From positions 72,120-136,119 of the forward strand of contig JBAZCA010000001.1 of NCBI GenBank assembly GCA_041671125.1: DNA of 64,000 bases. Reading direction: 5' to 3'. Below, piece by piece: positions 737 to 51,148 of this stretch. The stretch is from Patescibacteria group bacterium (GTDB lineage Bacteria > Patescibacteriota > Patescibacteriia > Patescibacteriales > JBAZCA01). Position numbers and translations under genes: made by a program. Below the pieces are notes generated by a model. It saw only the letters and a list, made by a program, of their open reading frames with translations. It ran no database searches and was not told the DNA's origin. Position 1 is the first letter of the stretch. The number at the start of each line of letters is the position of its first letter.

Positions 737-1411
737 CTAGAGGTCATCAACGCTTTTCAGGCCGCCGCCGCCCTTTTTCTGCGCCTCGCGGATGAGATCC
801 TGGTGGGCGTCCCAGGCGACCTTCCAGCCCTTCAAACCCATAATCGACTTCACAGAAGATACTATTTCGCCAGCAACAACGGCCATCAGCTTGTGTTTAT
901 GGCCGGTAGGGTGCTTTCGATCAGCCTTAGCGAAGTAAATTTCGTTCGTCCAGGCCGGAAGGATGAATCCGCCGTCGCTGGTTTGTGCCTGAAAGGCACA
1001 CAGCTTCGGTACTCCGGATTTGGTCGGGTTGGTAAACTTAAAAGTCACCGACCCTACACCATTTGCCGGAATAGTGGCGGAAGCAAACTCCGTTCCGGCA
1101 TGACTACCATCAGCATTAAAGTAGTCCATTCTGGCGCTCACTGATTCTCCCCCCGAAAAAAACGAAGGATCCTCGTGAACGTAATTGCCATTCGCGTCCA
1201 CCGGTGGCTTGCCCACGTACCGCAGGTGGCCACCCCTGGAGTTTGCATCCCCGGCGGATGCTGTGATAGTGAGAACAATCTCGCTGGCCGTGGCGGCGAC
1301 GACGTTCCGGTTCCCCGAATCGTCACTGCCCGCCAACTCTCCGCTCCAAGCCACCATGGGGGCGGCCAAGCAGAGCACCATTGCCAAAAACACACTCAAT
1401 AACCGGCTCAT
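737..1411 (-). CDS. Secreted hypothetical protein
   Basis: Signal-peptide-like N-terminus MSRLLSVFLAMVLCLAAPMVAWS. AGGAGG lies 5 nt upstream of the ATG. No recognisable domain. Visibly GC-richer than the core genes. Confidence 0.6.
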   Translation of the reverse strand: MSRLLSVFLAMVLCLAAPMVAWSGELAGSDDSGNRNVVAATASEIVLTITASAGDANSRGGHLRYVGKPPVDANGNYVHEDPSFFSGGESVSARMDYFNADGSHAGTEFASATIPANGVGSVTFKFTNPTKSGVPKLCAFQAQTSDGGFILPAWTNEIYFAKADRKHPTGHKHKLMAVVAGEIVSSVKSIMGLKGWKVAWDAHQDLIREAQKKGGGGLKSVDDL

Positions 1412-1943: not shown

Positions 1944-3722
1944 CTACTTATCACCGATTGGGTAGCTAAATGAATCTACCCCTTCAGGATTTATCGGCGA
2001 AATTCCTCCGCCCTGGCTAGCAACTTCGGCCAAGGCATCCTGCTGTGCCTGCGTCTTGAGTTGGCACTGGCCGTCGTCGCAAGCAGGTGCGGCAGACAGA
2101 GGCAGTGTCTTAGCGGCTTTGCCCGCAACAGGAAAAGTTGTGATCAGCCCTTGAGGGATGTCCTCGTCAGACTTGCCTTCCCCTTTAATCAGCCGGTAAA
2201 TCTTAACCGGATTTACCTGGGCGGTCAACCCGATGCCGGTTGCGTTACTTACTTCGCCGCCTTTCTTATAGCTGGCGGCGCTGCCTTTAACTCCGATGCC
2301 AAAGGCCTTGTCAAAAAAATTGACATACAGTTTGCCGATGCCAACTTTCCGTTCTGGGCCAAATTTTCCGTAGACATCAGCAGTCAAAGTAATCTGCTTT
2401 TTGTCTCCGAACGATACCAGGTCAGCCTCGGCGGCTACGAACGGCCCTTCGTAGCTGGCCTGCTCGGCGGCTAGCCGAGTGACTCTGCCGGTCTTGTCAG
2501 TAAAAGTTGATTTTCCTCGGCTATTGAGCACATGCTCGTAGCCGAGGGTGACCTTATATTCCGAAAGATACTTCTCGTCCTTTCGTGAATAATCGGCCAA
2601 ACCGACCTCACCAACTAGACTATCCCGGTTGAAAGACGACTTTGATTCTCCCGCGGAGTCGGACATAGACATCTTGTCCCAACCCCAGAGGTATCCGAGC
2701 CGGGTAAACGGCTCGCGTCCGCTCGGTGTCATCATCCGGGCTTCGGCGCCGAGGGTAAACTCGCCGCCGTGGAAATTAACCGGAGACTTCACGACACCCT
2801 TGGGGTCGTTCCACTGGCCGGTGTAACCCGAGAGGCGAGTGTACGGACCTGCTGAGTACTTATTTCCCCAGCGGTCGGTGCCGACCTCCCAGCGAACCGC
2901 GCCATAGGTCCAAAAACTAGTGTCGTTGGCGCCGTCGGAGTACCAGGTTCTGTCAGCCCCACCGACTACGTCAACTTGGGGCTTCCTGATGACCTCACTG
3001 TACTGCTTTACTATTTCCTCAGGCGCGCTTGGCGGAGGGGGTGGTGGCAGTGGAGGTGGAGGAGGGATTATTTTCAAAAGTTGCAGGTAAATATTGTTGC
3101 AACTTTTTCCCTCTATTACCCTCAGCGAATAATCCTCGTTCAGAGGAACAACTGCTTTGGGGCCCTTGCTCCCTTTCTCTAGCCGGGTTTTAGTCCAGCC
3201 CTGAGCGCTCTTTCCATAGGTCACGACGGCATAAATCTGGCCGTCAATTTCAACCGTCTGGGTCGAGCTTTCAAGGGCGTTGACCATCCGTTCAACAGTT
3301 GCATTGGACAAATTAACCGGCAACCGCGCCTCCTGAAGACTCTTAGGGAGCTGTTCCAAGGCGGCTTTCACCGCTTCGCTCCTAGACAGCGTGGTCGGAT
3401 TTTCACCCGCCACGGTTTGTGTTAACACCAGTGGCCTCGGAAGCTCTAATTGCTGGCCAGTAAACACCCACAACTTCGGGTGAGTTACTTGACTTTTCCA
3501 GCCAGCCAGAGCTCGGATGCGTTTCGGAGATGCCGAATCAGAGTAATTTTGCTGATATATTTTACCCAGCGTATCACCCTTTTTCACGGCGTATTTCTCC
3601 TCCGTCTGTACCTGAGGCTCAACGACAACAACTTGCTCATCTTTCCCGTCCTCGGCGAGGACGGGATGAACAAGCGCGATTGCCAAGGCAATCGCCAAGA
3701 TGATCTTGAGAAACTTACTCAC
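1944..3722 (-). CDS. Secreted LysM-domain protein with proline-rich linker and beta-rich C-terminal domain
   Basis: GTG start preceded by AAGGAGG. Signal peptide ends ...VHPVLA. LysM-like segment YAVKKGDTLGKIY...FTGQQLELP. Linker PPPPPLPPPPPPS. The C-terminal ~330 aa show an alternating strand-like pattern. Confidence 0.65.
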   Translation of the reverse strand: MSKFLKIILAIALAIALVHPVLAEDGKDEQVVVVEPQVQTEEKYAVKKGDTLGKIYQQNYSDSASPKRIRALAGWKSQVTHPKLWVFTGQQLELPRPLVLTQTVAGENPTTLSRSEAVKAALEQLPKSLQEARLPVNLSNATVERMVNALESSTQTVEIDGQIYAVVTYGKSAQGWTKTRLEKGSKGPKAVVPLNEDYSLRVIEGKSCNNIYLQLLKIIPPPPPLPPPPPPSAPEEIVKQYSEVIRKPQVDVVGGADRTWYSDGANDTSFWTYGAVRWEVGTDRWGNKYSAGPYTRLSGYTGQWNDPKGVVKSPVNFHGGEFTLGAEARMMTPSGREPFTRLGYLWGWDKMSMSDSAGESKSSFNRDSLVGEVGLADYSRKDEKYLSEYKVTLGYEHVLNSRGKSTFTDKTGRVTRLAAEQASYEGPFVAAEADLVSFGDKKQITLTADVYGKFGPERKVGIGKLYVNFFDKAFGIGVKGSAASYKKGGEVSNATGIGLTAQVNPVKIYRLIKGEGKSDEDIPQGLITTFPVAGKAAKTLPLSAAPACDDGQCQLKTQAQQDALAEVASQGGGISPINPEGVDSFSYPIGDK

Positions 3723-4623
3723 TTGCTTGCCCTCCTTTCAGATGTTTACCATATTTTTTCTTCCAGACGGCCTGATCATCATCGTACTGCTGAAGCCGTC
3801 TAAGATAAGCCTCATCGGCCTGGGGGTTTGCCGGTGCTTGGCGCTCGGACTTGAGGTCGCGGAGCACCGATTTAAACCGGGTGTCCGGGGCAGTATCATA
3901 CCCCGGCTGACTAAGGTCGGCGGATCCGACCATTTCCATCAGAATCCCCAGAACCCGACCGCCAGCTATGCTGGCAAGACCCATAGGTCCTGCAGATGCA
4001 GCGGCGGCGTCTTCTGTAGATACGCTACCAATCCGCTCGAGTATTCGCTCTCCTAGTCCTGGGAATTTGAGCCTGGAGATGGATTCGATAATTCCGGCCA
4101 ATTCGGCCATGAGCTCTTTGTGACGCTCACTGCCGAACTCAACCCACTCAATCTTTACCTCAGGGTATTGATTGATTGGGCGGATATGCTTCCAGTTGAA
4201 TCTGGGCATGCCGGTGCCAAAAACCAGTTGCGCATCCGGCGCATACTGGTGTTCGGACGACCTGGAGTTGATGTAGGCCTGCCGGTTCCAGTCCCGGCCT
4301 TTAACATCAATGACCCAGAGGAGGGGTTGGCTCCCTCTCATGATATCAAGGCCACCGACACTTTCCTTCCCAGGCTTATCATCTTTCTCGTCGTTCCGAA
4401 AGATAATATTATGGGCTACTCCCCCGTCGACAACTTCACTCCTAAAAAGGAGTTCGTGCTCGGGAATCAAGACGGAGTAGTATCCCTTTGCGTTGCCCAT
4501 GTTTTTGAAATCCTGGGGGAGGCTATAAAGCTCATTTTTTCCCATCCGCCCGGTGGCACAGCCACTGAGCAGGGTTCCAATTGCCAAAAGTACCAGAATC
4601 CGTAAAACAACTTTCACTTTCAT
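3715..4623 (-). CDS. Lipoprotein, function unknown
   Basis: Lipobox LLSGC after a hydrophobic N-terminus. GAGGAGGAAGG directly upstream of the ATG. 8-nt overlap with the downstream LysM gene suggests translational coupling. Confidence 0.65.
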   Translation of the reverse strand: MKVKVVLRILVLLAIGTLLSGCATGRMGKNELYSLPQDFKNMGNAKGYYSVLIPEHELLFRSEVVDGGVAHNIIFRNDEKDDKPGKESVGGLDIMRGSQPLLWVIDVKGRDWNRQAYINSRSSEHQYAPDAQLVFGTGMPRFNWKHIRPINQYPEVKIEWVEFGSERHKELMAELAGIIESISRLKFPGLGERILERIGSVSTEDAAAASAGPMGLASIAGGRVLGILMEMVGSADLSQPGYDTAPDTRFKSVLRDLKSERQAPANPQADEAYLRRLQQYDDDQAVWKKKYGKHLKGGQASE

Positions 4624-4634
4624 AACCTTCCTCC

Positions 4635-5213
4635 TCAGACTTTCTCAGCCGCCTCACAGGCGGCATTGGCTTCAATGCTCACGGCCTTTGGGTCAGCTAC
4701 GACCCTCTGGCCGATCTCCCGGAGTTCTTCTTCGCGAAGCAACGTTGCGGTCGCCTCAACGAGAGAGCCCTCTCTCTTTTGCCAGAATTTCCGAAGCCCG
4801 CGACGGAGCTCTTTTAAAATCTCGCTCCGCGATTTGGGCTTCTGGTCATCCGGCCAAAGCGGACTCATATACCGCCCGGGAGAAACTTCTAAAACTTCTG
4901 CCTCCCAGTTTACCATCCGGACTTCACCGGGCTCAAGACCCGACTGATCCGTATCCGCGATTTCAAATGGAATAGTTACTATTCGCGGAAACTCGGCAAC
5001 CCCAGAGACTCCATTTCCTTCGACTATGGGCAGACCGCCCTCCCGCACCTTCCAACATACATACAACAGAAGGGGCAGAATTACGACCAACCCGTAAACG
5101 GCCGCAAAGTAAAGGCGACCGCCATTCTCCCACCATGAGGTGGGCGTCACAGCCACGCTCAAGCCGATAAAACCGACGAGCGCGGCCACCGTTACCGGAA
5201 GACGCTTTTGCAT
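4635..5213 (-). CDS. Membrane protein (two N-terminal TM segments), function unknown
   Basis: TM-like stretches VTVAALVGFIGLSVAV and YFAAVYGLVVILPLLLYV. First gene of the GC-richer four-gene minus-strand cluster. Confidence 0.55.
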   Translation of the reverse strand: MQKRLPVTVAALVGFIGLSVAVTPTSWWENGGRLYFAAVYGLVVILPLLLYVCWKVREGGLPIVEGNGVSGVAEFPRIVTIPFEIADTDQSGLEPGEVRMVNWEAEVLEVSPGRYMSPLWPDDQKPKSRSEILKELRRGLRKFWQKREGSLVEATATLLREEELREIGQRVVADPKAVSIEANAACEAAEKV

Positions 5214-18083: not shown

Positions 18084-19004
18084 TTACAGCGGACTTTTTA
18101 TTTTTTCTAAAACATTTCCCGCCACCTTGGTATAAATTTGCGTCGTTTCCAGTTTAGCATGACCGAGGAGTTCCTGGATATACCTGATGTCGGTACCATT
18201 TTCCAGTAAATGCGTGGCAAAGCTGTGGCGCAGGCAGTGACAGGAAGCATGTTTTTTCACGCCGGATTTTTTTAAGGCATTGGAAAAAACTTTCTGCGCT
18301 GATCGCTCGGTTAACCGGTTCTTTTTACTTCCAGTCTCCGCGCCGCCATTTTTCAATTTTTCATCCACCGTTCCGGAATTCGCGTTTAGCACCCGGCTTC
18401 TCTCGCTTTCAAAAACATAATCATCCGGATTTTTACGGCAGACGTATTTTTTCAGGACGCCAATCATCTTTTCCGACATAATAGTTATCCGGTCTTTCTT
18501 GCCTTTGCCGGCGCGGATAAAAAGCATCATCCGGTCAAAATCAAGATCTTTGACTTTCAGCTTAACCGCCTCGGACACTCTTAATCCGGAGGAGTATATC
18601 AGTCCGAGCAGGAGCTTATGCTTCACATTCTGTATTGTCCCCAGTATTTTTTTAACTTCCTCTTTACTTAAGACTTCCGGCAGTTTTTTCGGCGTTTTTG
18701 CCCGCGGAATATTCATGAAAAACCGTCGGCAAAGAATTTTTTCAAAATAGAATTTCAGGGCGCTATAGGCGGTGTTCAGGGTGGATGCTGATTTGCCGTC
18801 ATCCGCCATTTTTTCAAGATAACCGCGGATATTCTCCGAAGTTACGTTTTTCGGCCCGGAATTTGCAAATCTTAGCGCGTCCGTGATATAATACAGATAA
18901 GATTTGATGGTCTTTCCGCTGAAATTACGCAATTTCATTTCCTGCTTCAGCTTTAATATCGGATCCTGGCTTGGATAATAATTCTGTTTCATACTTTGCT
19001 TCAT
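18084..19004 (-). CDS. Tyrosine recombinase, integron-integrase-like
   Basis: Catalytic set LRVSE / HCLRHSFATHLL / LLGHAKLETTQIYTKV. IntI1-like LKVKDLDFDRMMLFIRAGKGKKDR. Extra ~20-30 aa (ERSRVLNANSGTVDEKLKNGGAETGSKKNR) relative to XerC/D. Divergent from the cassette array. Confidence 0.7.
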   Translation of the reverse strand: MKQSMKQNYYPSQDPILKLKQEMKLRNFSGKTIKSYLYYITDALRFANSGPKNVTSENIRGYLEKMADDGKSASTLNTAYSALKFYFEKILCRRFFMNIPRAKTPKKLPEVLSKEEVKKILGTIQNVKHKLLLGLIYSSGLRVSEAVKLKVKDLDFDRMMLFIRAGKGKKDRITIMSEKMIGVLKKYVCRKNPDDYVFESERSRVLNANSGTVDEKLKNGGAETGSKKNRLTERSAQKVFSNALKKSGVKKHASCHCLRHSFATHLLENGTDIRYIQELLGHAKLETTQIYTKVAGNVLEKIKSPL

Positions 19005-21676: not shown

Positions 21677-21748
21677 TGTCCCCGGCAGGAATCGAACCTG
21701 CATCACAAGTTCCGGAAACTTGCGTCCTATCCATTGAACGACGGAGAC
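21677..21748 (-). tRNA. tRNA-Arg (anticodon CCG)
   Basis: GTCTCCG...CGGGGACA acceptor stem. Anticodon arm CAAGT-TTCCGGA-ACTTG. T-arm GCAGGTTCGATTCCTGC. No encoded CCA. Confidence 0.9.
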
Positions 21749-29888: not shown

Positions 29889-30368
29889 CTATTTTGATAA
29901 AAACCTCGGAAGAGGGTTTTTTTGTTTCAGGGACTTTTTGTATTCTACAATAATCCGGTAATGGTCAAAAGCAAAATCATCTTTCGGCGGAAGATCGTTT
30001 AATTTGCGCCACATAACTTCCGAAACTTCATAATCCGGCGCGCCGGTCTTTTTTAACGCTTCCAATAAAAAAACAAATGCTATATTCTGCCGACCGGCTT
30101 CGTTCCGCTCGGGAGCGTCAACAATGAATAATAATTTTTGAACTTCTGCCTGATAACCGGTTTCCTCCATAACTTCCCTTTTAACCGCCTCTTCCACGCT
30201 CTCGTCATGCTCAATAAAACCGCCGGGCAGGCAATATTTTCCGCCCTGGAACATCTCCGGCGACCGCTTAACGATTAGAATTTCGTCCCCGCGCGTTAAA
30301 ATCGCGTCAACGACAGCGTGCCTCGCGTTATTAACTTCATGTCCGTTTTCAAATTTGCAAGTAATCAT
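29889..30368 (-). CDS. NUDIX hydrolase
   Basis: Nudix box GGKYCLPGGFIEHDESVEEAVKREVMEETG. I prefer ATG 30368 (MITCKF...) to the track start 30470, which overlaps the upstream gene by 86 nt. Confidence 0.85.
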   Translation of the reverse strand: MITCKFENGHEVNNARHAVVDAILTRGDEILIVKRSPEMFQGGKYCLPGGFIEHDESVEEAVKREVMEETGYQAEVQKLLFIVDAPERNEAGRQNIAFVFLLEALKKTGAPDYEVSEVMWRKLNDLPPKDDFAFDHYRIIVEYKKSLKQKNPLPRFLSK

Positions 30369-38327: not shown

Positions 38328-38400
38328 AGCCGTTGCGCGGAATCGAACCGCGGACCTACTCCTTACCATGGAGTTGCTCTACCGGCTGAGCTACAACGGC
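38328..38400 (-). tRNA. tRNA-Thr (anticodon GGU)
   Basis: GCCGTTG...CAACGGC acceptor stem. D-arm GCTCAGCCGGTAGAGC. Anticodon arm ACTCC-ATGGTAA-GGAGT. T-arm CGCGGTTCGATTCCGCG. Confidence 0.9.
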
Positions 38401-38477
38401 CTATTCAATTAAAAATTACGAATTATCAATTACAAATTAATTCGGAAAAATTTTAATTCGTAATTTTTAATTCGTAA

Positions 38478-39329
38478 TTACAACTCCCCGATCCTTTCTT
38501 TAAATTCCTTTAACTTCTGGTTTTCGGGGTTGGCTTTTTCCAGCCGCTTTAAGGCGTCCAGAGCGGCGATTTTATCTTTACCTATTATACTTATTTCAAT
38601 CATGGTGTCAAGGTATTTCGGATTTAACGGCTCAATTTTCAGGGCTTCTTTCATGTTCTTCGCGGCCTCATCGTAATTCTCTTTTTCGCTGAAAACCCGG
38701 GACAATTCAAAATAAACCTGGCCGCGCTCAAGGCTCAAATTTTTTAACTGTTCTTCGGAATTTTCATCCCGGCTATTTACGATGCCGGCCTCCTCGTCCT
38801 CAATGAGCTTTAAGATATGGGCGTAAGATTGCCGCGCTTCTTCATACTGTTTTTTCAGGCTGTAAAGGCCGCCGAGCTTTTTAAAAGCTTTTAAATTCCG
38901 GCTTTGGAGGGAGATAATTTCAATCAGCTTCTTTTCCGCCTCTTCGTATGATTCGGATTTTATGGCCGCGTCGGCTTCGTTTAAAAGTTCCAAAACCGGA
39001 CGGGCGGTTTTTTCTTCGTTACCGCTTTTTGTTAAATCCCGGTCCGCCCGGTATTTTTCTTTCAGGCGCAAAAGCCGGGCGAGAAGAAATGAAAAAAGTT
39101 CTCCGAGTTTCCCTCCGATGAAAGAAAATGACTTAAAAGTTTTCGCGTTCCAATAAGTAAGGTTTCTTTTTAGGCGGTTGCCGATTATCCGCTCCTTAAA
39201 GCGGCTTTCCTTTTCCGCCGGAATGCTTTCAATATCAAGGTTCGCGAGTGCCGAAAATTTCCGAACCACGATTCCGGTCATGACCGCGAGCGAAAGCAGG
39301 ATTAAAATTAAGGGGATTATGTTATACAT
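38478..39329 (-). CDS. TPR-repeat protein with N-terminal membrane anchor
   Basis: TM segment IIPLILILLSLAVMTGIVV. TPR-like repeats (YEEAEKKLIEIISL, YEEARQSYAHILKL, YDEAAKNMKEALKIEPLNPKYL). Confidence 0.7.
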   Translation of the reverse strand: MYNIIPLILILLSLAVMTGIVVRKFSALANLDIESIPAEKESRFKERIIGNRLKRNLTYWNAKTFKSFSFIGGKLGELFSFLLARLLRLKEKYRADRDLTKSGNEEKTARPVLELLNEADAAIKSESYEEAEKKLIEIISLQSRNLKAFKKLGGLYSLKKQYEEARQSYAHILKLIEDEEAGIVNSRDENSEEQLKNLSLERGQVYFELSRVFSEKENYDEAAKNMKEALKIEPLNPKYLDTMIEISIIGKDKIAALDALKRLEKANPENQKLKEFKERIGEL

Positions 39330-43713: not shown

Positions 43714-45171
43714 ATGACTGATTTAAAAAACACCCCTCCCCTTTCCGATGAAGAAAAAGGCGCCGATATCGCGGCTCCGGAATACGCGAAGAAAAAAAAG
43801 TGGCCGAAAAGAGCCGTTTATTTTTTAATTTTCCTCGGTATAAGCGTTGCTTTCTTTTTTTCCCAGGCGATTATCTCGGACCGCAGTTCCTACTCCTGGA
43901 TAAAAAGGATGCCAATCGTAAAACAGTTTAACACCCTGGTGGAAGGGGCTGATAAGAAATTAAAAGGCGAAGATGAAGACCGGGTTAATATCCTTCTTTT
44001 AGGCATGGGCGGCAAAGGCCATGACGGGGCTTATCTGACCGATACGATTATGCTCGCGAGCTTAAAACCGAGCGAAGGCAAAGTTTTTCTCCTCTCCATC
44101 CCCCGCGATCTGGTTGTTCCGGTTGAAGGCCAGGGCTGGAGAAAAATAAATTCCATCAATTCTTTCGCCGAGGCAAAAGAGCCTGGTTCCGGCGGCCAAG
44201 CCACGGCCGACGCGATCGGGGATTTACTGGACCTGCCAATTCATTACTACTTAAGGGTGGATTTTGAAGGTTTCATGAAAATAGTTGACGAACTCGGGGG
44301 AATTAACGTTTACGTTGAAAATACGCTGGATGATTATTCTTATCCGGTTCTCGGTAACGAAGACGCGGCCTGGAATTCCCGTTATGAACATCTTCACGTT
44401 GATACCGGCTGGCAGGAAATGGACGGATCGCTCGCCTTAAAATTTTCCCGTTCCCGCCACGCTTACGGCTCCGAAGGCTCGGACTTCGCCCGCGCCCGGC
44501 GCCAGCAAAAAGTGATTGAAGCCGTTAAAGACAAGGCTCTATCGTTAAACATGGTTTTTAAGCCCATGGCCATAAAAAATATCATTGACGCTTTAAACGA
44601 ACATGTAAGCACCAGTTTTGAAATTTGGGAAATCTACAAATTCTACGACCTGGCGAAAAATATCTCCAAAGAAAACATCTCCAACAAAGTCCTGGATACG
44701 AGCGCCGAAGGGCTTTTAGTTAACGGTACCGGGCAGGACGGAGCCTACATCCTTTCCCCTCGCTCGGGCGACTTTGCCGAAATCCAGTATCTCGCGAAGA
44801 GCGCCTTTTCCGCCCCCTCAACAGTTGAGAGCGAAAAAGTTAGCGTTGAAAAAACCACTATTGAGGTAAAAAACGGGACCTGGATTAACGGGCTGGCCGG
44901 CCAGGCTTCGGTTGACCTTGAACGGTACGGCTTCGTCGTAACGAAAATTTCAAACTCCAGCCGCCAGAATTTTCAAAAATCAGTCATCTATGACCTCACT
45001 TTCGGAGAGAAAAAAGAATCCCTGCAGATGCTAAAAGAAAAAACCGGCGCTAACGTTTCCTTTAACCTGCCGGACTGGCTGACCGAAGAACTGAAAACGG
45101 AAAATGAAAATAAAGCTAATACAACGCCGCCCGACTTTATCCTAATACTGGGAACCGATGCCAACAAATAA
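43714..45171 (+). CDS. LytR-CpsA-Psr (LCP) family phosphotransferase with LytR_C-like C-terminal domain
   Basis: TM anchor. NILLLGMGGKGHDGAYLTDTIMLASL...FLLSIPRDL...ALKFSRSRH. Confidence 0.88.
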   Translation: MTDLKNTPPLSDEEKGADIAAPEYAKKKKWPKRAVYFLIFLGISVAFFFSQAIISDRSSYSWIKRMPIVKQFNTLVEGADKKLKGEDEDRVNILLLGMGGKGHDGAYLTDTIMLASLKPSEGKVFLLSIPRDLVVPVEGQGWRKINSINSFAEAKEPGSGGQATADAIGDLLDLPIHYYLRVDFEGFMKIVDELGGINVYVENTLDDYSYPVLGNEDAAWNSRYEHLHVDTGWQEMDGSLALKFSRSRHAYGSEGSDFARARRQQKVIEAVKDKALSLNMVFKPMAIKNIIDALNEHVSTSFEIWEIYKFYDLAKNISKENISNKVLDTSAEGLLVNGTGQDGAYILSPRSGDFAEIQYLAKSAFSAPSTVESEKVSVEKTTIEVKNGTWINGLAGQASVDLERYGFVVTKISNSSRQNFQKSVIYDLTFGEKKESLQMLKEKTGANVSFNLPDWLTEELKTENENKANTTPPDFILILGTDANK

Positions 45172-46735
45172 TCTCCTAAAAATCGTCATCTTCGGCCGAA
45201 CTAATGTCGGTAAATCAACCCTCTTTAACCGCCTTACCGAAGACGACCACGCCCTGGCCGCCGATGAGGAAGGCACGACCAGGGATTCTAATTTCGGCCA
45301 TGTTGAATGGGGCGGGATGGAATTTGAAATTATTGATACCGGCGGAATTATTAACCTCCGGGAGCTTACTGTCCCTTTGTCCGGCCGGCAAAAAAAACTG
45401 GCGACGGCGAAAATGAAGCTCGCCCCGGACCGGGAAACAATAGATAAGAAAGTCCAGCTCCAGGCCCGCGAACATCTGACGCGGGCTGATTTGATTTTAT
45501 TCCTTATTGACGCCAAAGCCGGAATGACTCCCGAAGACCGGCAACTAGCCCTGTTCTTAAAGGAATTCGCCAAAGATAAAAAGATCATCCTCGCGGCCAA
45601 TAAGACCGATTCGCCGAAAGATATCCACCGTCTCTCCGAATTCTATAAACTCGGACTCGGCGAACCGCTTCCGATTTCCGCCGCCACCGGCTCGGGAACC
45701 GGAGATTTGCTTGACGAAATAGTTAGCGCGCTAAAAAATAAAACGCCCCTTAAAACCGCCGGCAAAACTTCGGGTAAAGAAAAACCCGGCGCCGATTTTC
45801 AACCCGAAGATTCCGAAACAACCGCTGACGAAGAAGCGCCTTCCGACCAGACCCCGGCGCCGATTCGCGTCAGCATTATCGGCAAACCGAACGTCGGCAA
45901 ATCAAGCCTTATCAATTCCATTTTCGGCCGGGAGCGGGTAATAGTAAGTTCTGTTCCCCATACGACCAGAGAGCCGCAGGACACAGAATTTATCCATAAA
46001 GACCGAAAAATGATACTGGTTGACACGGCCGGAATAACCAGAAAAGCTTCCCAAAGCCGGCGTTCGCGCACGCCCGGCCGGGGATCAAAAAATAAAGTTG
46101 ATTTGGTGAAGGAAGGCATCCACCGCTCCTTAAAAAGCCTAAACCGGGCCGATATCGCCATTTTAGTGCTTGATATTTCAAAAGAAATCACCCGCGAGGA
46201 CCAAAGGATTGCCGACGAAATAATCGGAAGAAAAAAAAGCATTATCATTATCGCCAATAAATGGGATCTTGTTCCGGAAAGGGACGTAAAAAAATATACT
46301 GAGTACATAAACGACCGCCTGCCCTTTATTAAATGGGCGCCGATAATTTTCGTCTCAGCCCTGACCGGCCGCCGGACCGGCGATATTCTCAGCCTTATCG
46401 CTGACATCCGCGACGAGCGGGCAAAGACCATCCGGGAAAAAGACCTGGATAAATTTTTAAAAAGAATCGTAAAGATCCATAGGCCGGTTCGCTACCGGGC
46501 CTCGGACAAATATCCCTACATAAGAAAAATCCGGCAGGCCGATTCGGATCCGCCGGAGATGGAAGTTTTAATCGGCGCCCGGGAAAGCATTGATTCCACC
46601 TATCTCAGATTTATTGAAAACCAGCTTCGGGATCAGTTCCGCTTCATCGGCTCCCCGATCAGCGTTCGGGTGTTTAAAGGAAAATGGATCCATGGAAAAA
46701 GCGAAAAGAAAAAAGATAAAACAGAAGAAGAATAA
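45158..46735 (+). CDS. der: Ribosome-biogenesis GTPase Der/EngA (two GTPase domains plus KH-like domain; acidic insert)
   Basis: GRTNVGKSTLFN...DTGG and GKPNVGKSSLIN...DTAG. 14-nt overlap with the LCP gene. Confidence 0.92.
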   Translation: MPTNNLLKIVIFGRTNVGKSTLFNRLTEDDHALAADEEGTTRDSNFGHVEWGGMEFEIIDTGGIINLRELTVPLSGRQKKLATAKMKLAPDRETIDKKVQLQAREHLTRADLILFLIDAKAGMTPEDRQLALFLKEFAKDKKIILAANKTDSPKDIHRLSEFYKLGLGEPLPISAATGSGTGDLLDEIVSALKNKTPLKTAGKTSGKEKPGADFQPEDSETTADEEAPSDQTPAPIRVSIIGKPNVGKSSLINSIFGRERVIVSSVPHTTREPQDTEFIHKDRKMILVDTAGITRKASQSRRSRTPGRGSKNKVDLVKEGIHRSLKSLNRADIAILVLDISKEITREDQRIADEIIGRKKSIIIIANKWDLVPERDVKKYTEYINDRLPFIKWAPIIFVSALTGRRTGDILSLIADIRDERAKTIREKDLDKFLKRIVKIHRPVRYRASDKYPYIRKIRQADSDPPEMEVLIGARESIDSTYLRFIENQLRDQFRFIGSPISVRVFKGKWIHGKSEKKKDKTEEE

Positions 46736-46847: not shown

Positions 46848-47426
46848 ATGCGTATTATCGCCGGACTGGGCAATCCCGAAGATAAATACTATCTCACGCG
46901 CCATAACGCGGGCTTTCTCGCGGTTGACCAAATCGCCAACCTCCATAACGCGGACTGGAATTATAATAAGAAATTCAAATCGGATATCTGCGCTCTCTTT
47001 GGCGGAACGGACGGAAATAAATCCGTCCTGCTCGTAAAGCCGCGGACTTACATGAATAAATCCGGCGAAGCGATCGCGAACGTTTTAAACTATTACCATC
47101 TTTTGCCAAAACGCCTGGGATTTATTCCGGTTTCTGACGCGCCGCTCGCCGACAGTTTGACTGTCATCCATGATGATCTTGATATTGAGCTTGGAAAATT
47201 TAAAATTTCTCTTGATTCCCGAAGCGCCGGCAACCGCGGAGTGCAATCCATTATTGACCGGATTAAAACTAAAAATTTTACGCGCGTCAGAATCGGCATC
47301 CGCGCTTTGGCGCTTATAAAAATCCCGGCCGAAAAATTCGTCCTGCAAAAATTTTCTCCGGATGAAATGAAAACGGTCAGCGCCCTGATTGACGACCTCG
47401 TCCGCCGGGAATTAAAACTCTTCTGA
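46848..47426 (+). CDS. pth: Peptidyl-tRNA hydrolase
   Basis: MRIIAGLGNPEDKYYLTRHNAGF...VIHDDLD. Confidence 0.93.
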   Translation: MRIIAGLGNPEDKYYLTRHNAGFLAVDQIANLHNADWNYNKKFKSDICALFGGTDGNKSVLLVKPRTYMNKSGEAIANVLNYYHLLPKRLGFIPVSDAPLADSLTVIHDDLDIELGKFKISLDSRSAGNRGVQSIIDRIKTKNFTRVRIGIRALALIKIPAEKFVLQKFSPDEMKTVSALIDDLVRRELKLF

Positions 47427-47435
47427 AACATCCAT

Positions 47436-47643
47436 AAAAAAACTCCGCCCAGCGGGACGGAGACAGAGTCTGTATAATGTCCGGATTACTACTTGCCATT
47501 GGGGGACAATCAATCTATAAGCGGGTAAGGAGGGAACCCGTCCCATAAACCAATGCCCTGTGACAAGTAGTAATCCAGGGGGGACACTATTATTAAAATT
47601 TTTATGGCGGTCGTTATCCACCTTTTCCGGTTACTGCCATTGA
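47436..47643 (-). ncRNA. Unclassified structured small RNA (~205 nt)
   Basis: Bounded by an exact consensus promoter and an intrinsic terminator (ctccgtcccgctgggcggag + U7, 47462-47436). 13-bp perfect helix between 47564-47576 and 47483-47495. No credible ORF. Confidence 0.6.
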
Positions 47644-47649
47644 CTTTAG

Positions 47650-47678
47650 ATTATAGCACCGCCATTAACCGGTGTCAA
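47650..47678 (-). promoter_or_regulatory. Consensus sigma70 promoter of the small RNA
   Basis: On the minus strand: TTGACA (47678-47673), 17-nt spacer, TATAAT (47655-47650). Confidence 0.75.
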
Positions 47679-47730
47679 GGCTAAAATTCACCTCATCCGA
47701 TCAAAAAGACCGTAAAATCAAGTAAAAAGG

Positions 47731-48816
47731 ATGGACATAAAATACCTGGCCGCCCTGAATACTTATACGAAATTCGGGCCGGTTCGCTTCAAAAAATTAA
47801 AGGCGCGCTTCCCTTCCTGGCAGGCGGCTTTTTACGCCGGAGTAAGCGAATTAAAAAGCGCCGGGATTGACGAAAATATCGCCCTGGATTTTATAAGCCG
47901 GAGAAAAGCTATCAATCCCGACGCGATCATGGAAGAAATAATCCGGGAAAAAATCAGTCTTATAACTCCGGAAGACCGGCGCTATCCCGGGATACTAAAA
48001 GAAATCCCCGATTTTCCCCCGCTCCTTTATCTGCGGGGCGAATTAAAAACCGAGGATGATTTTTCTTTGGCCGTAGTCGGGGCGAGAAAATTTTCTTCTT
48101 ATGGCAAACGGCTTACCGAAGATATCGTCCGCGAACTCGCGCGGTATAAAATTACCATAGTGAGCGGCTTGGCTTTAGGAATTGACGCTTTAGCCCATTC
48201 CGCCGCGCTTTTAGCCGGCGGCCGGACTATTGGGGTTTTAGGTTCCGGAGTTGACCGACAAAGCGTTTATCCGGTCGCTAACCAAAATATCGCGGAAAAA
48301 ATTATCGCCGAAGGCGGGGCGATTATAAGCGAATTTCCTTTGGGCACCCCCGGATTAAGGCATCATTTCCCTCAAAGGAACCGGATTATCGCCGGACTGG
48401 CAAAAGGCGTCCTCGTTATTGAAGCCGGAGAAAAATCCGGTTCGCTTATTACCGCCCGTTTCGCGCTTGATTTTAACCGGGAGGTTTTCGCGGTCCCTGG
48501 TAGCGTCTATTCTCCGGTTTCGGCCGGCGCCAACGCGCTCATAAAAGAAGGCGCAATCCTCACCCGAAACGGCAACGATATAATTGAGGCGCTTGACCTT
48601 AAGCGCGTATCCTTATATATTGAAACTAAATCCGTAATGCCGGAGACCAAAGAGGAAAAAATCCTTCTTTCTTTTTTAAGCGGCGAATCGGTTCATGTGA
48701 ACGAATTAATCCGCCTTTCCGGCCTGCCCGCTTCAACGGTTACCGGTTCATTAACCATCATGGAAATGAAAGGCATGATAAAGAATCTCGGGGGGATGGA
48801 GTATGTGTTAGTTTAG
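47731..48816 (+). CDS. dprA: DNA-processing protein DprA (Smf)
   Basis: VSGLALGIDALAHSAALLAGGRTIGVLGSGVDRQSVYPVAN...FPQRNRIIAGL, plus a C-terminal wHTH. Confidence 0.9.
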   Translation: MDIKYLAALNTYTKFGPVRFKKLKARFPSWQAAFYAGVSELKSAGIDENIALDFISRRKAINPDAIMEEIIREKISLITPEDRRYPGILKEIPDFPPLLYLRGELKTEDDFSLAVVGARKFSSYGKRLTEDIVRELARYKITIVSGLALGIDALAHSAALLAGGRTIGVLGSGVDRQSVYPVANQNIAEKIIAEGGAIISEFPLGTPGLRHHFPQRNRIIAGLAKGVLVIEAGEKSGSLITARFALDFNREVFAVPGSVYSPVSAGANALIKEGAILTRNGNDIIEALDLKRVSLYIETKSVMPETKEEKILLSFLSGESVHVNELIRLSGLPASTVTGSLTIMEMKGMIKNLGGMEYVLV

Positions 48817-48910
48817 TCCCTAAGTCAAGAAGTAAAAAGTCAAAAGTTAAAGTCCACAAGCAAGAATTTAAATTGACTTTGGACTTTTGGACTTTCCGAC
48901 TAATTTTTTT

Positions 48911-51148
48911 ATGAAATTAATCATCGTTGAGTCGCCAACCAAGGCCAAAACCATTTCCAAATTCATTTCCAAAGACTATAAGGTTGAGTCTTCTTTCGGG
49001 CATATTCGCGACCTGCCAAAAAGCGAAATGGGAATTGATATTGAAAACGATTTTACGCCCGAATACGTAATTCCGCTAAAAAGCCGGAAAACCGTAGCTA
49101 ACCTAAAGGCTTTGGCTAAAAAAGCGGAAAAAATTATCCTGGCCTCGGACGAAGACCGGGAAGGAGAAGCGATTGCCTGGCATTTAGCCGAAGCGCTGAA
49201 GCTTAATAAAAGCCAGACCCAACGGATTGTTTTCCATGAAATTACCAAGCCAGCCATACTTAAAGCCATTGAAAATCCCCGGGAGATCAATAGCCACCTC
49301 GTTGACGCCCAGCAGGCGCGCCGGGTTTTAGATCGCCTCGTCGGCTACGAGCTTTCGCCCTTTTTATGGAAAAAAGTCGCTCGCGGACTATCGGCCGGCC
49401 GGGTGCAATCGGTGGCCGTCCGGTTAATCGTTGAACGGGAACGCGAAATTAAAGCTTTTAAAGCCGAAGAATACTGGAGCGTCTCAGCCCTCCTGGCCCG
49501 GACCAAAGAAAAAGATTCCCAATTTGAAACCAGGCTCCATAAAATAAACGGCAAAACCGTTGAAAAACTCCAGATAAAAAATGAAGTTGAGGCCGATAAA
49601 ATCTTATCCGACCTTAAAGGCGCGGAATACAAGGTCGCGGAAGTCGTAAAAAAAGAAGGAACAAAAAACCCTCCCCGGCCGTTTACTACTTCCACCCTCC
49701 AGCAAACTGCCAACCGCTGGCTCGGATTCTCCGCCAAGCAGACCATGACCCTAGCTCAAAGGCTCTACGAAACCGGCCTTATTACTTACATGCGTACCGA
49801 TTCGGTAAACCTCTCGGAAAAATTCCTCGCCGACGCCGGAGTTTACCTTAATAACGCTTTAGGCGGAGAATACGCGCTTAAAACTCCGAACCGCTACAAA
49901 ACAAAAAGCAAAGGCGCCCAGGAAGCCCATGAGGCTATCCGGCCGACCGAAGCGGCCGATGACCCTGAATCCGTAAAAGACAAGCTGGAGTCCGGCCAGT
50001 ACCGGCTCTATAAACTGATCTGGCAAAGATCAATCGCCTCGCAGATGCCGCCAGCCAAGGTTGACGCTACGACCATAGACGTTGACGCGGAAAAAGACGG
50101 CCGAGCCGACTACCAATTCCGGGCGACCGGCCAGGTAATAAAATTTGACGGTTATTTAAAAATTTATCCGGAGAAAAGCGCCGAAATTGAATTGCCAGAA
50201 GTGGAAGTTGAAGAAGCGCTTGATCTTATAAAACTAAGTGGCGAAGAACATTTTACTAAGCCGCCGGCCCGCTACTCGGACGCCGGACTGGTTAAAGTTT
50301 TAGAAAAATACGGTATCGGCCGGCCGTCCACTTACGCCCCGACGATCGCGACGATTGAGACGCGGAATTACATGGAGCGGGACGAAAATAAAAAATTAAA
50401 GCCGACTGATATCGCTTTCGTAGTAAACGACCTTTTGGTCGCCCATTTTCCCAATATCGTTGACTTTCAGTTTACGGCCGGCATGGAAAACAATCTTGAT
50501 GAAATTGCCGAAGGGCGGCAGAAATGGCAGCCGGTGATAGGAGAATTTTATGTTCCTTTCCATGATAATTTAATAAAAAAGCAGGACGAACTGAAAAAAT
50601 CCGACATCATCCCCGAAGAAAAATCCGAGGAGGTCTGCGAAAAATGCGGCTCGGCCATGATCATTAAAACCGGACGCTGGGGAAAATATCTTGCCTGTTC
50701 CAATTTTCCGGAATGTAAAAATATCAAATCATTGCCTAAAGCGGGCGTAACCGCCGATCCCGAGACGGAAGCAAAGCTAAAAGCGCTTCAGGAAAAATAC
50801 AAGGACGAAGTTTGCGAAAAATGCGGCTCAGCGATGGTTATAAAAAACGGCCGCTTTGGACCGTTTTTAGCCTGCTCCGGCTATCCGAAATGCAAAAACA
50901 TAAAAAGCATTACTGAAAATTCCGGCTCTACCGGAATAAAATGCCCTGTCTGCGGAGAGGGGGAAATTGTCATGAAGCGAAGCCGACGCGGCCCCTTTTA
51001 TGCCTGCAACCGCTACCCGGACTGCAAAACTTCTTTTTCTTCTAAACCCACCGGCGAAAAATGCCCGGACTGCGGCGCGCTTCTTCTAGAAGCAAAAGAC
51101 GGCGGAGTTAAATGTTCGGCTAAAGGTTGCGGGTATAAGACCGCGTAG
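48911..51148 (+). CDS. topA: DNA topoisomerase I (four C-terminal zinc ribbons)
   Basis: MKLIIVESPTKAKTI (Toprim). ITYMRTDS active-site Tyr region. Four C-x2-C...C-x4/5-C fingers. ATG 48911 preferred over TTG 48887. The stop TAG lies inside a REP stem. Confidence 0.93.
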   Translation: MKLIIVESPTKAKTISKFISKDYKVESSFGHIRDLPKSEMGIDIENDFTPEYVIPLKSRKTVANLKALAKKAEKIILASDEDREGEAIAWHLAEALKLNKSQTQRIVFHEITKPAILKAIENPREINSHLVDAQQARRVLDRLVGYELSPFLWKKVARGLSAGRVQSVAVRLIVEREREIKAFKAEEYWSVSALLARTKEKDSQFETRLHKINGKTVEKLQIKNEVEADKILSDLKGAEYKVAEVVKKEGTKNPPRPFTTSTLQQTANRWLGFSAKQTMTLAQRLYETGLITYMRTDSVNLSEKFLADAGVYLNNALGGEYALKTPNRYKTKSKGAQEAHEAIRPTEAADDPESVKDKLESGQYRLYKLIWQRSIASQMPPAKVDATTIDVDAEKDGRADYQFRATGQVIKFDGYLKIYPEKSAEIELPEVEVEEALDLIKLSGEEHFTKPPARYSDAGLVKVLEKYGIGRPSTYAPTIATIETRNYMERDENKKLKPTDIAFVVNDLLVAHFPNIVDFQFTAGMENNLDEIAEGRQKWQPVIGEFYVPFHDNLIKKQDELKKSDIIPEEKSEEVCEKCGSAMIIKTGRWGKYLACSNFPECKNIKSLPKAGVTADPETEAKLKALQEKYKDEVCEKCGSAMVIKNGRFGPFLACSGYPKCKNIKSITENSGSTGIKCPVCGEGEIVMKRSRRGPFYACNRYPDCKTSFSSKPTGEKCPDCGALLLEAKDGGVKCSAKGCGYKTA

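Follow-up and report, generated by a model that had tools for sequence, protein, structure and literature searches.

Predicted structured small RNAs with an anti-Shine-Dalgarno-like apical loop encoded beside dprA in Patescibacteria

Introduction

Bacteria of the candidate phyla radiation (CPR) have tiny genomes and few recognisable regulators. To our knowledge, no regulatory or structured RNA family specific to the Patescibacteria/CPR has been characterised, and our literature searches found none. Here we analysed a 64,000-nucleotide (nt) stretch of DNA from a Patescibacteria group bacterium (GenBank assembly GCA_041671125.1, contig JBAZCA010000001.1, positions 72,120 to 136,119 of the forward strand), called the window throughout. 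The question raised by this window is what is encoded on the minus strand of the 304-nt spacer between the genes pth and dprA, where a promoter and a terminator enclose a segment that overlaps no coding sequence. A sequence-only reading had proposed an independently transcribed, structured non-coding RNA (ncRNA) at this place, and the proposal survived the comparison with Rfam, the search for conserved relatives and the analysis of covariation. Sequence, conservation and covariation make us close to certain that a stable, structured non-coding small RNA (sRNA) has a gene of its own here, with a near-consensus sigma70-type extended -10 promoter and its own intrinsic terminator. Together with a sibling RNA found in relatives, it makes up a new RNA family that comes in two paralogous architectures. 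Judging by the predicted mechanism, its general kind is already known, namely sRNAs with a C-rich or anti-Shine-Dalgarno (anti-SD) seed.

Results

The promoter is present as the sequence-only reading had described it, with TTGACA and TATAAT separated by 17 nt on the minus strand (47678-47650). The -35 box occupies 47678-47673, and the spacer ends in TGc, giving the extended -10 element TGcTATAAT at 47658-47650 (TATAAT itself at 47655-47650). The promoter matches the consensus at 12 of 12 positions, and so exact a pattern is expected 0.03 times per 64-kb window. It had also been called the only perfect consensus promoter in the window, which did not hold: a second one, TTGACA-16-TATAAT, lies at 38611-38584 on the minus strand. 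According to the position of the -10 element, transcription would start at about 47643-47647 and produce a 5' leader of about 53 nt (47590-47645, minus strand). The intrinsic terminator, likewise found as read, is located about 205 nt past the promoter and consists of the 8-bp G+C-rich hairpin CTCCGTCCCGCTGGGCGGAG followed by U7 (47462-47436, minus strand). It ranks among the strongest terminator-like sites in 15 kb, and its plus-strand side lacks a T-run, indicating that termination occurs on the minus strand only. No gene on the same strand follows the RNA in the window.

The 208-nt transcript is predicted to fold with a minimum free energy (MFE) of -79.7 kcal/mol, compared to -55.3 +/- 4.9 kcal/mol for dinucleotide shuffles (z = -5.0), and none of 200 shuffles was as good. 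The conserved core is a long irregular hairpin of 118 nt (47471-47589, minus strand), which we call the H-type RNA; it is recognised by our covariance model R1 with 117.7 bits (E = 4e-26). In the main helix, the 5' strand GGAUUACUACUUGUCA (47561-47576) pairs with the 3' strand UGGCAAGUAGUAAUCC (47483-47498), both strands being supported by the MFE structure and the covariation analysis. The 13-bp helix noted earlier between GGAUUACUACUUG (47576-47564) and CAAGUAGUAAUCC (47495-47483) is part of this element and present in the MFE structure. The proposed extension of that helix by CAUUGG/CCAAUG had to be dropped, as it is used neither in the MFE structure nor in the consensus and has no counterpart in homologues. 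The upper helices are formed by GGGC..UUGGUU..GGGACGGGU (47536-47558) and ACCCGCUU..GAUUGA..GUCCC (47504-47526), with GGGC pairing with GUCC and UUGGUU with GAUUGA in both the MFE structure and the covariation-supported consensus. The hairpin is capped by the apical loop UCCCUCCUU (47527-47535), unpaired in the MFE structure; together with the next A it makes up the anti-SD-like sequence UCCCUCCUUA (47535-47526) that had drawn attention at the outset and that no other feature of the family equals in conservation. The motif UGUCCCCC does occur twice, as claimed, and only its 3' copy is conserved, as the 3' strand of helix 2. The 5' copy is confined to this lineage, where it contributes to the lower stem and to an internal loop. 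The internal loops of the covariation-supported H-type structure measure only 2-5 nt. A search with R1 found one H-type copy in the window.

We compared the locus with known RNA families. With Rfam 15 at gathering thresholds, only two transfer RNAs (tRNAs) were found in the whole window (38328-38400 and 21677-21748). At E<=10, the interval 47350-47780 gave three weak matches (E 0.09-1.8, far under the gathering scores), of which two cover the terminator hairpin and the third the promoter region; none of them is credible. No model for 6S RNA, the signal recognition particle (SRP) RNA, transfer-messenger RNA (tmRNA), RNase P, RsaE (RF01820) or the csRNAs matched this interval at E<=10, in line with the earlier failure to recognise a housekeeping RNA by eye. 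In the literature on CPR ncRNAs, structured RNAs, 6S RNA and Shine-Dalgarno (SD) sequences we found neither a prior description of this RNA family nor a report of a 6S RNA for CPR.

The earlier statement that no plausible open reading frame (ORF) lies between promoter and terminator needs a qualification. A 69-amino-acid (aa) ORF with a GTG start (47621-47412) spans the RNA, and it is not conserved in homologues. A coding role for this ORF was rejected, as the longest ORFs of the homologues have 9-59 aa and differ in position and peptide.

To collect homologues, we ran a DprA-based scan with one genome per species, which returned 36 loci (designated L with a number). The closest DprA relatives are labelled Patescibacteria group or Candidatus Falkowbacteria, and the best DprA identity is 89%, which places the window among the CPR. 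Searches with nhmmer, and then with model R1 built from alignment A2, placed the hairpin upstream of dprA in six of the loci (L001, L002, L005, L006, L011 and L022). A degenerate pattern derived from these, CTTGYY..YCCTCCTTR..GCAAGYAGWAA, was scanned over a metagenome collection and hit 38 stretches. Thirty of these are true members scoring 47-123 bits, and the other 8, with no model match at E<=0.001, were taken as chance hits. After removal of duplicates, 32 distinct H-type sequences remained.

These 32 sequences, aligned with MAFFT (alignment A6), show strong covariation. Compensatory changes, that is, changes on both sides of the pair, were found for 23 of 34 pairs and in each of helices 2-4. 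Standard pairs fill 91.9% of the cells; sliding the 3' partners by 1-3 columns lowers this share to 30.6-49.9%, and none of 500 column shuffles reached the observed values on any measure. The family consensus of the main helix is UU(A/U)CU(A/G)CUUG / CAAG(Y)AG(W)AA, with swaps from A-U to G-C and from A-U to U-A. The covariation concerns the minus strand only. Indeed, conserved G-U and U-G pairs (19 GU at columns 49/71; 9-11 UG at columns 9/116, 13/112 and 27/98) would become A-C and C-A mismatches on the plus strand. R1 also scored 117.7 bits on the minus strand of the window versus 23.8 bits on the plus strand, with overall ranges of 118-127 versus 24-38 bits, so that the minus strand scores 3-5 times higher. 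We therefore assign the RNA to the minus strand.

The signals for transcription are conserved as well. The -35 box, in the form TTGAC(A/T/G), is kept in 29 of the 32 distinct homologues together with a TAnnnT element 16-18 nt away (17 nt in most, 16 or 18 nt in five), and the TG extension occurs in 26 of 32. The -10 element lies at a variable distance of 3-60 nt from the base of the hairpin, which argues that the leader of about 53 nt is specific to the lineage of the window and that the hairpin is the conserved body of the RNA. In homologues of the window clade (L001, L059, L042, L043 and L063), a hairpin and U-run are found at the same distance past the core, with different stem sequences. 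In the region about 110 nt upstream of the H-type core, three related loci (L045, L051 and L040) lack a TTGAC-type promoter where it is normally found. In L051 and L040, dprA is farther away than usual (248 nt), and it was not seen in the flank of L045. An insertion may have displaced the promoter in these three loci.

Many loci without an R1 match carried CCTCCT on the minus strand upstream of dprA, and these sequences fold into a Y-shaped RNA of about 105 nt, the Y-type. Its closing stem of 20 bp (UUUUGCCUAGGAG/CUYCUAGGCARAAU) is joined by two hairpins, the first with an 8-10-nt loop reading (C)CCCUCCU and the second short. In an alignment of 18 Y-types, 28 of 31 pairs show compensatory changes, and 92.0% of the cells are paired versus 32-50% in the slid controls. 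A second covariance model, R2, finds the Y-type in most loci, for example at 4558-4667 in L006, 4496-4599 in L008 and 4124-4227 in L009 (all minus strand), and in more than 30 others. In most cases it follows the H-type in tandem at a distance of 40-120 nt, with the same orientation and its own -10-like element. In the more distant L003, L008, L009, L010, L012, L013, L017, L018 and L033, it is the sole RNA beside dprA. Members found by the model alone also show CCCUCCU in the loop.

The two architectures differ, and only the closing stem and the loop are common to both. The models cross-match weakly, and L015 carries an intermediate form (4037-4140, minus strand; 26.7 bits with R1, 37 bits with R2; closing stem UUUUGCUUAUC/GGUAAGCAAUAUU), indicating that H-type and Y-type are paralogues. 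No Y-type was found in the 64-kb window, including behind the promoter at 38611-38584, nor beside the H-type in the closest relatives, so the window clade seems to keep only the H-type. No Rfam family recognised the Y-type relatives, and 6S RNA gave no match to them. Pattern scans of IMG/VR gave 4 loci, none of which matched R1 or R2, and thus no phage-borne member. On the same strand, the Y-type is followed by four tRNA genes in L038 (1690-2232, minus strand) and by one each in L012 (1996-2069, minus strand) and L044 (12396-12468, minus strand), which suggests stable-RNA gene clusters or co-transcription.

The most constrained single-stranded element of the RNA is CCUCCU(U), which always forms the apical loop. 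In the H-type this loop measures 9-11 nt and reads YCCUCCUU(A/G) in all 32 homologues. CCUCCU was found in every listed H-type and Y-type (above about 40 bits), including members ascertained via DprA or a covariance model, and the stems that carry it covary freely. Its mean unpaired probability is 0.99 in the H-type (32 homologues) and 0.91 in the Y-type. The 3' end of canonical 16S ribosomal RNA (rRNA) reads CCUCCUUA, and the loop of the window RNA, CCUCCUU(A), equals the last 8 nt of the Escherichia coli-type molecule, i.e., the anti-SD. The comparison uses the canonical sequence, as no 16S sequence was found in the 650 kb covered by the analysis. As an equivalent of this 3' end, the loop is complementary to AGGAGG.

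How many genes could such a loop address? These genomes look SD-poor. At the homology-anchored starts of pth (35 loci) and dprA (about 60 loci), the upstream regions are A/T-rich and lack GGAG. An upper-bound estimator puts SD-like 5-mers before no more than 24% of the window's long ORFs. For other CPR loci it gave 19-23%, for Chloroflexi or unrelated metagenome loci 56-58%, and for Flavobacteria 6%. An estimator based on the first ATG of each ORF gave 0% in non-CPR controls and was discarded, whereas the upper-bound estimator separates the controls. With no more than about 24% of the long ORFs of the window able to have an SD-like 5-mer, the loop would single out few genes. Most window genes lack an SD and are preceded by A/T-rich sequence (e.g., before 46848, 47731, 14167 and 59750; also in L002, L007 and L010), often with short tandem heptamer-like repeats such as ttcgtaattcgtaatttgtaatt and tgtaaattgataattgatcattgattaatt.

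Among SD regions, the best predicted duplexes with the loop were those of the ORFs at 29889-30368 (NUDIX; -12.7 kcal/mol), 3715-4623 (-12.5 kcal/mol) and 737-1411 (-10.1 kcal/mol), which makes these three ORFs the candidate targets in the window. A duplex of -10.7 kcal/mol was predicted at the start codon of 18084-19004, and the median over the window is -3.65 kcal/mol. The start of dprA in the window ranks 5th of 46 (-9.8 kcal/mol). In seven loci (L001, L059, L008, L009, L010, L046 and L052), codons 2-3 of dprA are GAG GAT or GAG GGA, so that GGAGGA follows the AUG as a possible pairing site for CCUCC; other genomes have GAA instead. Three ORFs within the first 5.3 kb of the window (737-1411, 3715-4623 and 4635-5213, all on the minus strand) have no Pfam domains. 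Two of them have strong AGGAGG-type SDs and are among the best predicted partners of the loop, and the third has only a weak GGAG. This part of the window has a G+C content of 50.8% versus 45.1% for the window and may be acquired DNA.

The gene order given earlier, with the RNA convergent with pth and upstream of dprA, was confirmed. On the plus strand, der/engA (45158-46735) and pth (46848-47426) precede the spacer, and dprA (47731-48816; Pfam DNA_processg_A, 1.4e-76) and topA (48887-51148) follow it. The RNA is thus a divergent neighbour of dprA, and its terminator ends 10 nt from the stop codon of the convergent pth. Across all contigs whose flanks are long enough, dprA is divergent from the H-type core, which is found 61-311 nt upstream of it, and topA usually comes after dprA. 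The metagenome members had been found by pattern, independently of gene context. The distance to pth downstream of the H-type ranges from 35 nt to 5.3 kb. Since the position of dprA is constant while that of pth varies, the conserved partner of the RNA is dprA and not pth.

In several genomes, the -35 box of the RNA is about 10-50 nt from the dprA start codon or overlaps it, and no convincing separate dprA promoter was found in the spacer. In one clade, four loci (L006, L022, L069 and L046) contain a near-perfect palindrome of about 30 bp, CCCCGTTAGAAATTT..AAATTTCTAACGGGG, located directly upstream of the H-type -35 box at 5-60 nt, between the RNA promoter and dprA. The window lacks this palindrome, which might serve as an operator or as a bidirectional element that the RNA gene and dprA have in common. 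A leader or riboswitch for a conserved downstream gene was also considered and rejected, as the downstream ORFs of relatives are variable and mostly without Pfam domains. On the plus strand (47427-47470), the terminator hairpin is preceded by A7 and not followed by a T-run; transcription of pth may therefore read antisense through the RNA gene towards dprA. Outside the window clade, the gene arrangement makes such read-through from pth to dprA unlikely.

Discussion

What could this RNA do? By analogy with characterised systems, we tentatively lean towards a trans-acting, chaperone-independent sRNA whose loop blocks initiation on the few messenger RNAs (mRNAs) led by an SD. According to this proposal, a long nuclease-resistant hairpin would present unpaired CCUCCU(U) as a seed in its apical loop, and the loop would pair in trans, with no need for a chaperone, with AGGAGG-type SDs. 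In doing so, it would rival the anti-SD tail of 16S rRNA, whose sequence is identical, and keep the 30S subunit from binding to the minority of mRNAs that have a strong SD. The Y-type has the same loop and would presumably do the same job in relatives. In RsaE and RNAIII, unpaired UCCC motifs bind the SD and prevent formation of the initiation complex (PMC2790875), and csRNAs carry unpaired anti-SD and anti-AUG sequences, for which a like action is proposed (PMC3091779).

Several observations weigh against this proposal. A seed of 6-7 nt directed at a generic SD offers little specificity, and no conserved target was identified from the in silico duplexes. dprA as a direct target of the loop was not supported: across 37 genomes, the predicted duplexes with dprA and with pth had means of -5.6 and -5.8 kcal/mol, respectively (Mann-Whitney p = 0.72). 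Sequence conservation in the closing helix, over a core of 10 bp, goes far past what pairing would need, which is more typical of protein-bound RNAs than of sRNAs made of a seed and a terminator. Some Y-types precede tRNA genes on the same strand, hinting at a housekeeping stable RNA. Finally, the search pattern behind 25 of the 32 H-types prescribed CTTG, YCCTCCTTR and GCAAGYAGWAA, so the invariance of CTTG/CAAG, AG.AA and the loop in these sequences is by construction; the seven DprA-ascertained sequences independently show the same invariants.

The conservation of the closing helix leads to the rival idea of a protein-binding or decoy RNA, in which a mimic of the 16S tail (CCUCCUUA) or a sequence-specific duplex titrates or recruits a protein, as 6S, CsrB and GlmY-type decoys do. 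We consider this unlikely, though not negligible, and extend the same low degree of belief to its candidate partners: a ribosomal protein or assembly factor that binds the anti-SD, an RNase, or DprA itself. Both the H-type (UUACUNCUUG/CAAGNAGUAA) and the Y-type (UUUUGCCUAGGAG/CUYCUAGGCARAAU) keep the sequence of the closing-helix core and not just its pairing, and this holds even among the DprA-ascertained genomes, whose DprA is 51-89% identical to that of the window. A decoy would also fit a window loop identical to the terminal 8 nt of canonical 16S rRNA, promoters that look strong and constitutive, the location of some members in tRNA clusters, as is typical of abundant stable RNAs, and the strict linkage to dprA down to about 45% DprA identity. 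Yet each RNA carries one motif, whereas sponge RNAs usually have many, and the GAUCA residues upstream of the anti-SD that are recognised by Era are absent from the loop. No candidate protein was pinpointed, and the neighbourhood is constant only for dprA-topA. A second rival is a local cis regulator of dprA-topA, in which the strong divergent promoter, possibly together with antisense pairing to transcripts that read through from pth to dprA, would act by promoter competition, transcriptional interference or RNase III cleavage. We regard such a regulator as quite unlikely, and equally so its corollary that the structured body mainly stabilises the transcript. The core always lies 61-311 nt from and divergent to dprA with a variable pth side, the -35 box comes within about 10-50 nt of the dprA start or overlaps it in several genomes, and the spacer has no convincing promoter of its own for dprA. 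Moreover, der, pth, dprA and topA share the plus strand of the window, and a read-through mRNA would be fully complementary to the RNA. Pure interference or antisense action, however, would not select a covarying structure of 118 nt and an invariant loop. The 5' leader, the only part able to overlap the 5' untranslated region of dprA, is not a conserved feature and measures anywhere from about 0 to 53 nt. Operon read-through cannot be general, since most relatives have pth at a distance of 0.2-5 kb, with a second RNA gene, tRNAs or other genes in between.

A diverged 6S, SRP, tmRNA, RNase P or Y RNA that escapes the Rfam models is very improbable. The strong promoter, the long closing stem that joins the ends, the wide occurrence in one lineage and the adjacent tRNAs of some genomes would suit a housekeeping RNA; 6S RNA is hard to detect by sequence, and we found no literature on it in CPR. 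On the other hand, Rfam gave nothing at E<=10 beyond the three weak matches (E 0.09-1.8), and the structure has no large central bubble as in 6S RNA, no domain IV loops or GNRA tetraloop as in SRP RNA, and no tRNA-like domain or tag ORF as in tmRNA. A core of 105-118 nt is too small for 6S RNA or RNase P, and two paralogues of different architecture would be unexpected. Least credible of all, with hardly any probability left, is an element of the plus strand or of the DNA, such as a structure in a pth-dprA mRNA with an SD-like AAGGAGG loop or an inverted-repeat protein site, or else a chance fold. The reverse complement does fold, with the loop AAGGAGGGA upstream of dprA on the same strand, and R1 has weak plus-strand matches. 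But the conserved G-U and U-G pairs would turn into A-C and C-A, the minus strand outscores the plus strand 3-5 times with R1 and is the one that carries the conserved promoter and terminator, and more than 190 nt separate the loop from the start codon of dprA. A chance fold is excluded by z = -5 and by the covariation.

As an sRNA that blocks initiation, the window RNA would most resemble RsaE/RoxS (RF01820) and the loops of RNAIII, with a stand-alone gene, its own promoter and intrinsic terminator, an Hfq-independent style and, in a hairpin loop, an SD-complementary C/U-rich motif that is both conserved and unpaired. SD blocking was shown for RsaE and RNAIII (PMC2790875) and is predicted here; the likeness is one of mechanism only, as there is no homology in sequence or structure. 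The window RNA also differs in that a single motif reproduces the full anti-SD core CCUCCU(U) rather than UCCC/CCCC, in the hairpin of about 50 bp with a sequence-conserved closing helix on which this motif is displayed, and in the SD-poor CPR host. The streptococcal csRNAs are several sibling sRNAs with strong promoters and an unpaired anti-SD, to which they add an anti-AUG. They are tied to natural competence because they repress comC (PMC3091779; PMC4507080). The window RNA sits beside a competence gene, dprA, and its sibling in relatives is the Y-type. Unlike in the csRNAs, where the seed lies in a single-stranded linker between two stem-loops, it lies here in an apical loop without an anti-AUG (CAU) beside it, and there is neither homology nor conserved complementarity to dprA mRNA.

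6S RNA (RF00013) shares with the window RNA an abundant look, a strong promoter and a double-stranded rod closed by pairing of the 5' and 3' ends, and both are possible molecular mimics. The window RNA does not match the 6S model, has no large central bubble and a core of 105-118 nt in the family, and its conserved single-stranded element is the apical loop and not a bubble that templates pRNA. GlmY and GlmZ (PMC4737144) are two homologous sRNAs of related structure; H-type and Y-type are likewise two, here arranged in tandem. By this analogy, a possibility is that one sibling pairs and the other acts as a decoy. Unlike in GlmY/GlmZ, both paralogues keep the same loop motif, and the analogy goes no further, with no adaptor protein or RNase E site known.

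DprA acts on incoming DNA in natural transformation. The adjacency to dprA-topA, as seen in the gene order, may mean that control sequences are used in common, or that the RNA has a functional tie to DNA uptake. A bolder and doubtful extension is that, in bacteria whose translation mostly starts without an SD, a trans-encoded anti-SD gates or silences SD-led messages, possibly on DNA from SD-rich hosts, or titrates a factor that binds the 16S tail. The silenced messages could include genes on DNA taken up from such hosts, because the RNA is coupled to dprA. If this is true, it would amount to xenogeneic silencing at the level of translation, and either way the RNA would be a mimic of the 16S 3' end, for the 30S subunit comparable to what 6S RNA is for RNA polymerase. 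Competition of the loop with the 16S anti-SD, if it occurs, would be an unusually direct case of an sRNA bearing the ribosome's own recognition sequence. The locus offers a handle on post-transcriptional control and on SD-dependent versus SD-independent initiation in CPR, and alignments A6 and A4 are two ready covariance-model seeds for annotation.

Other observations

The second exact promoter of the window (38611-38584, minus strand) lies inside the 3' end of a TPR-like ORF (38478-39329, minus strand), about 180 nt upstream of a tRNA gene (38400-38328, minus strand). Within the interval 38400-38480, AT-rich aattacgaattaaaa repeats give rise to a long hairpin (z = -4.4 for the fold).

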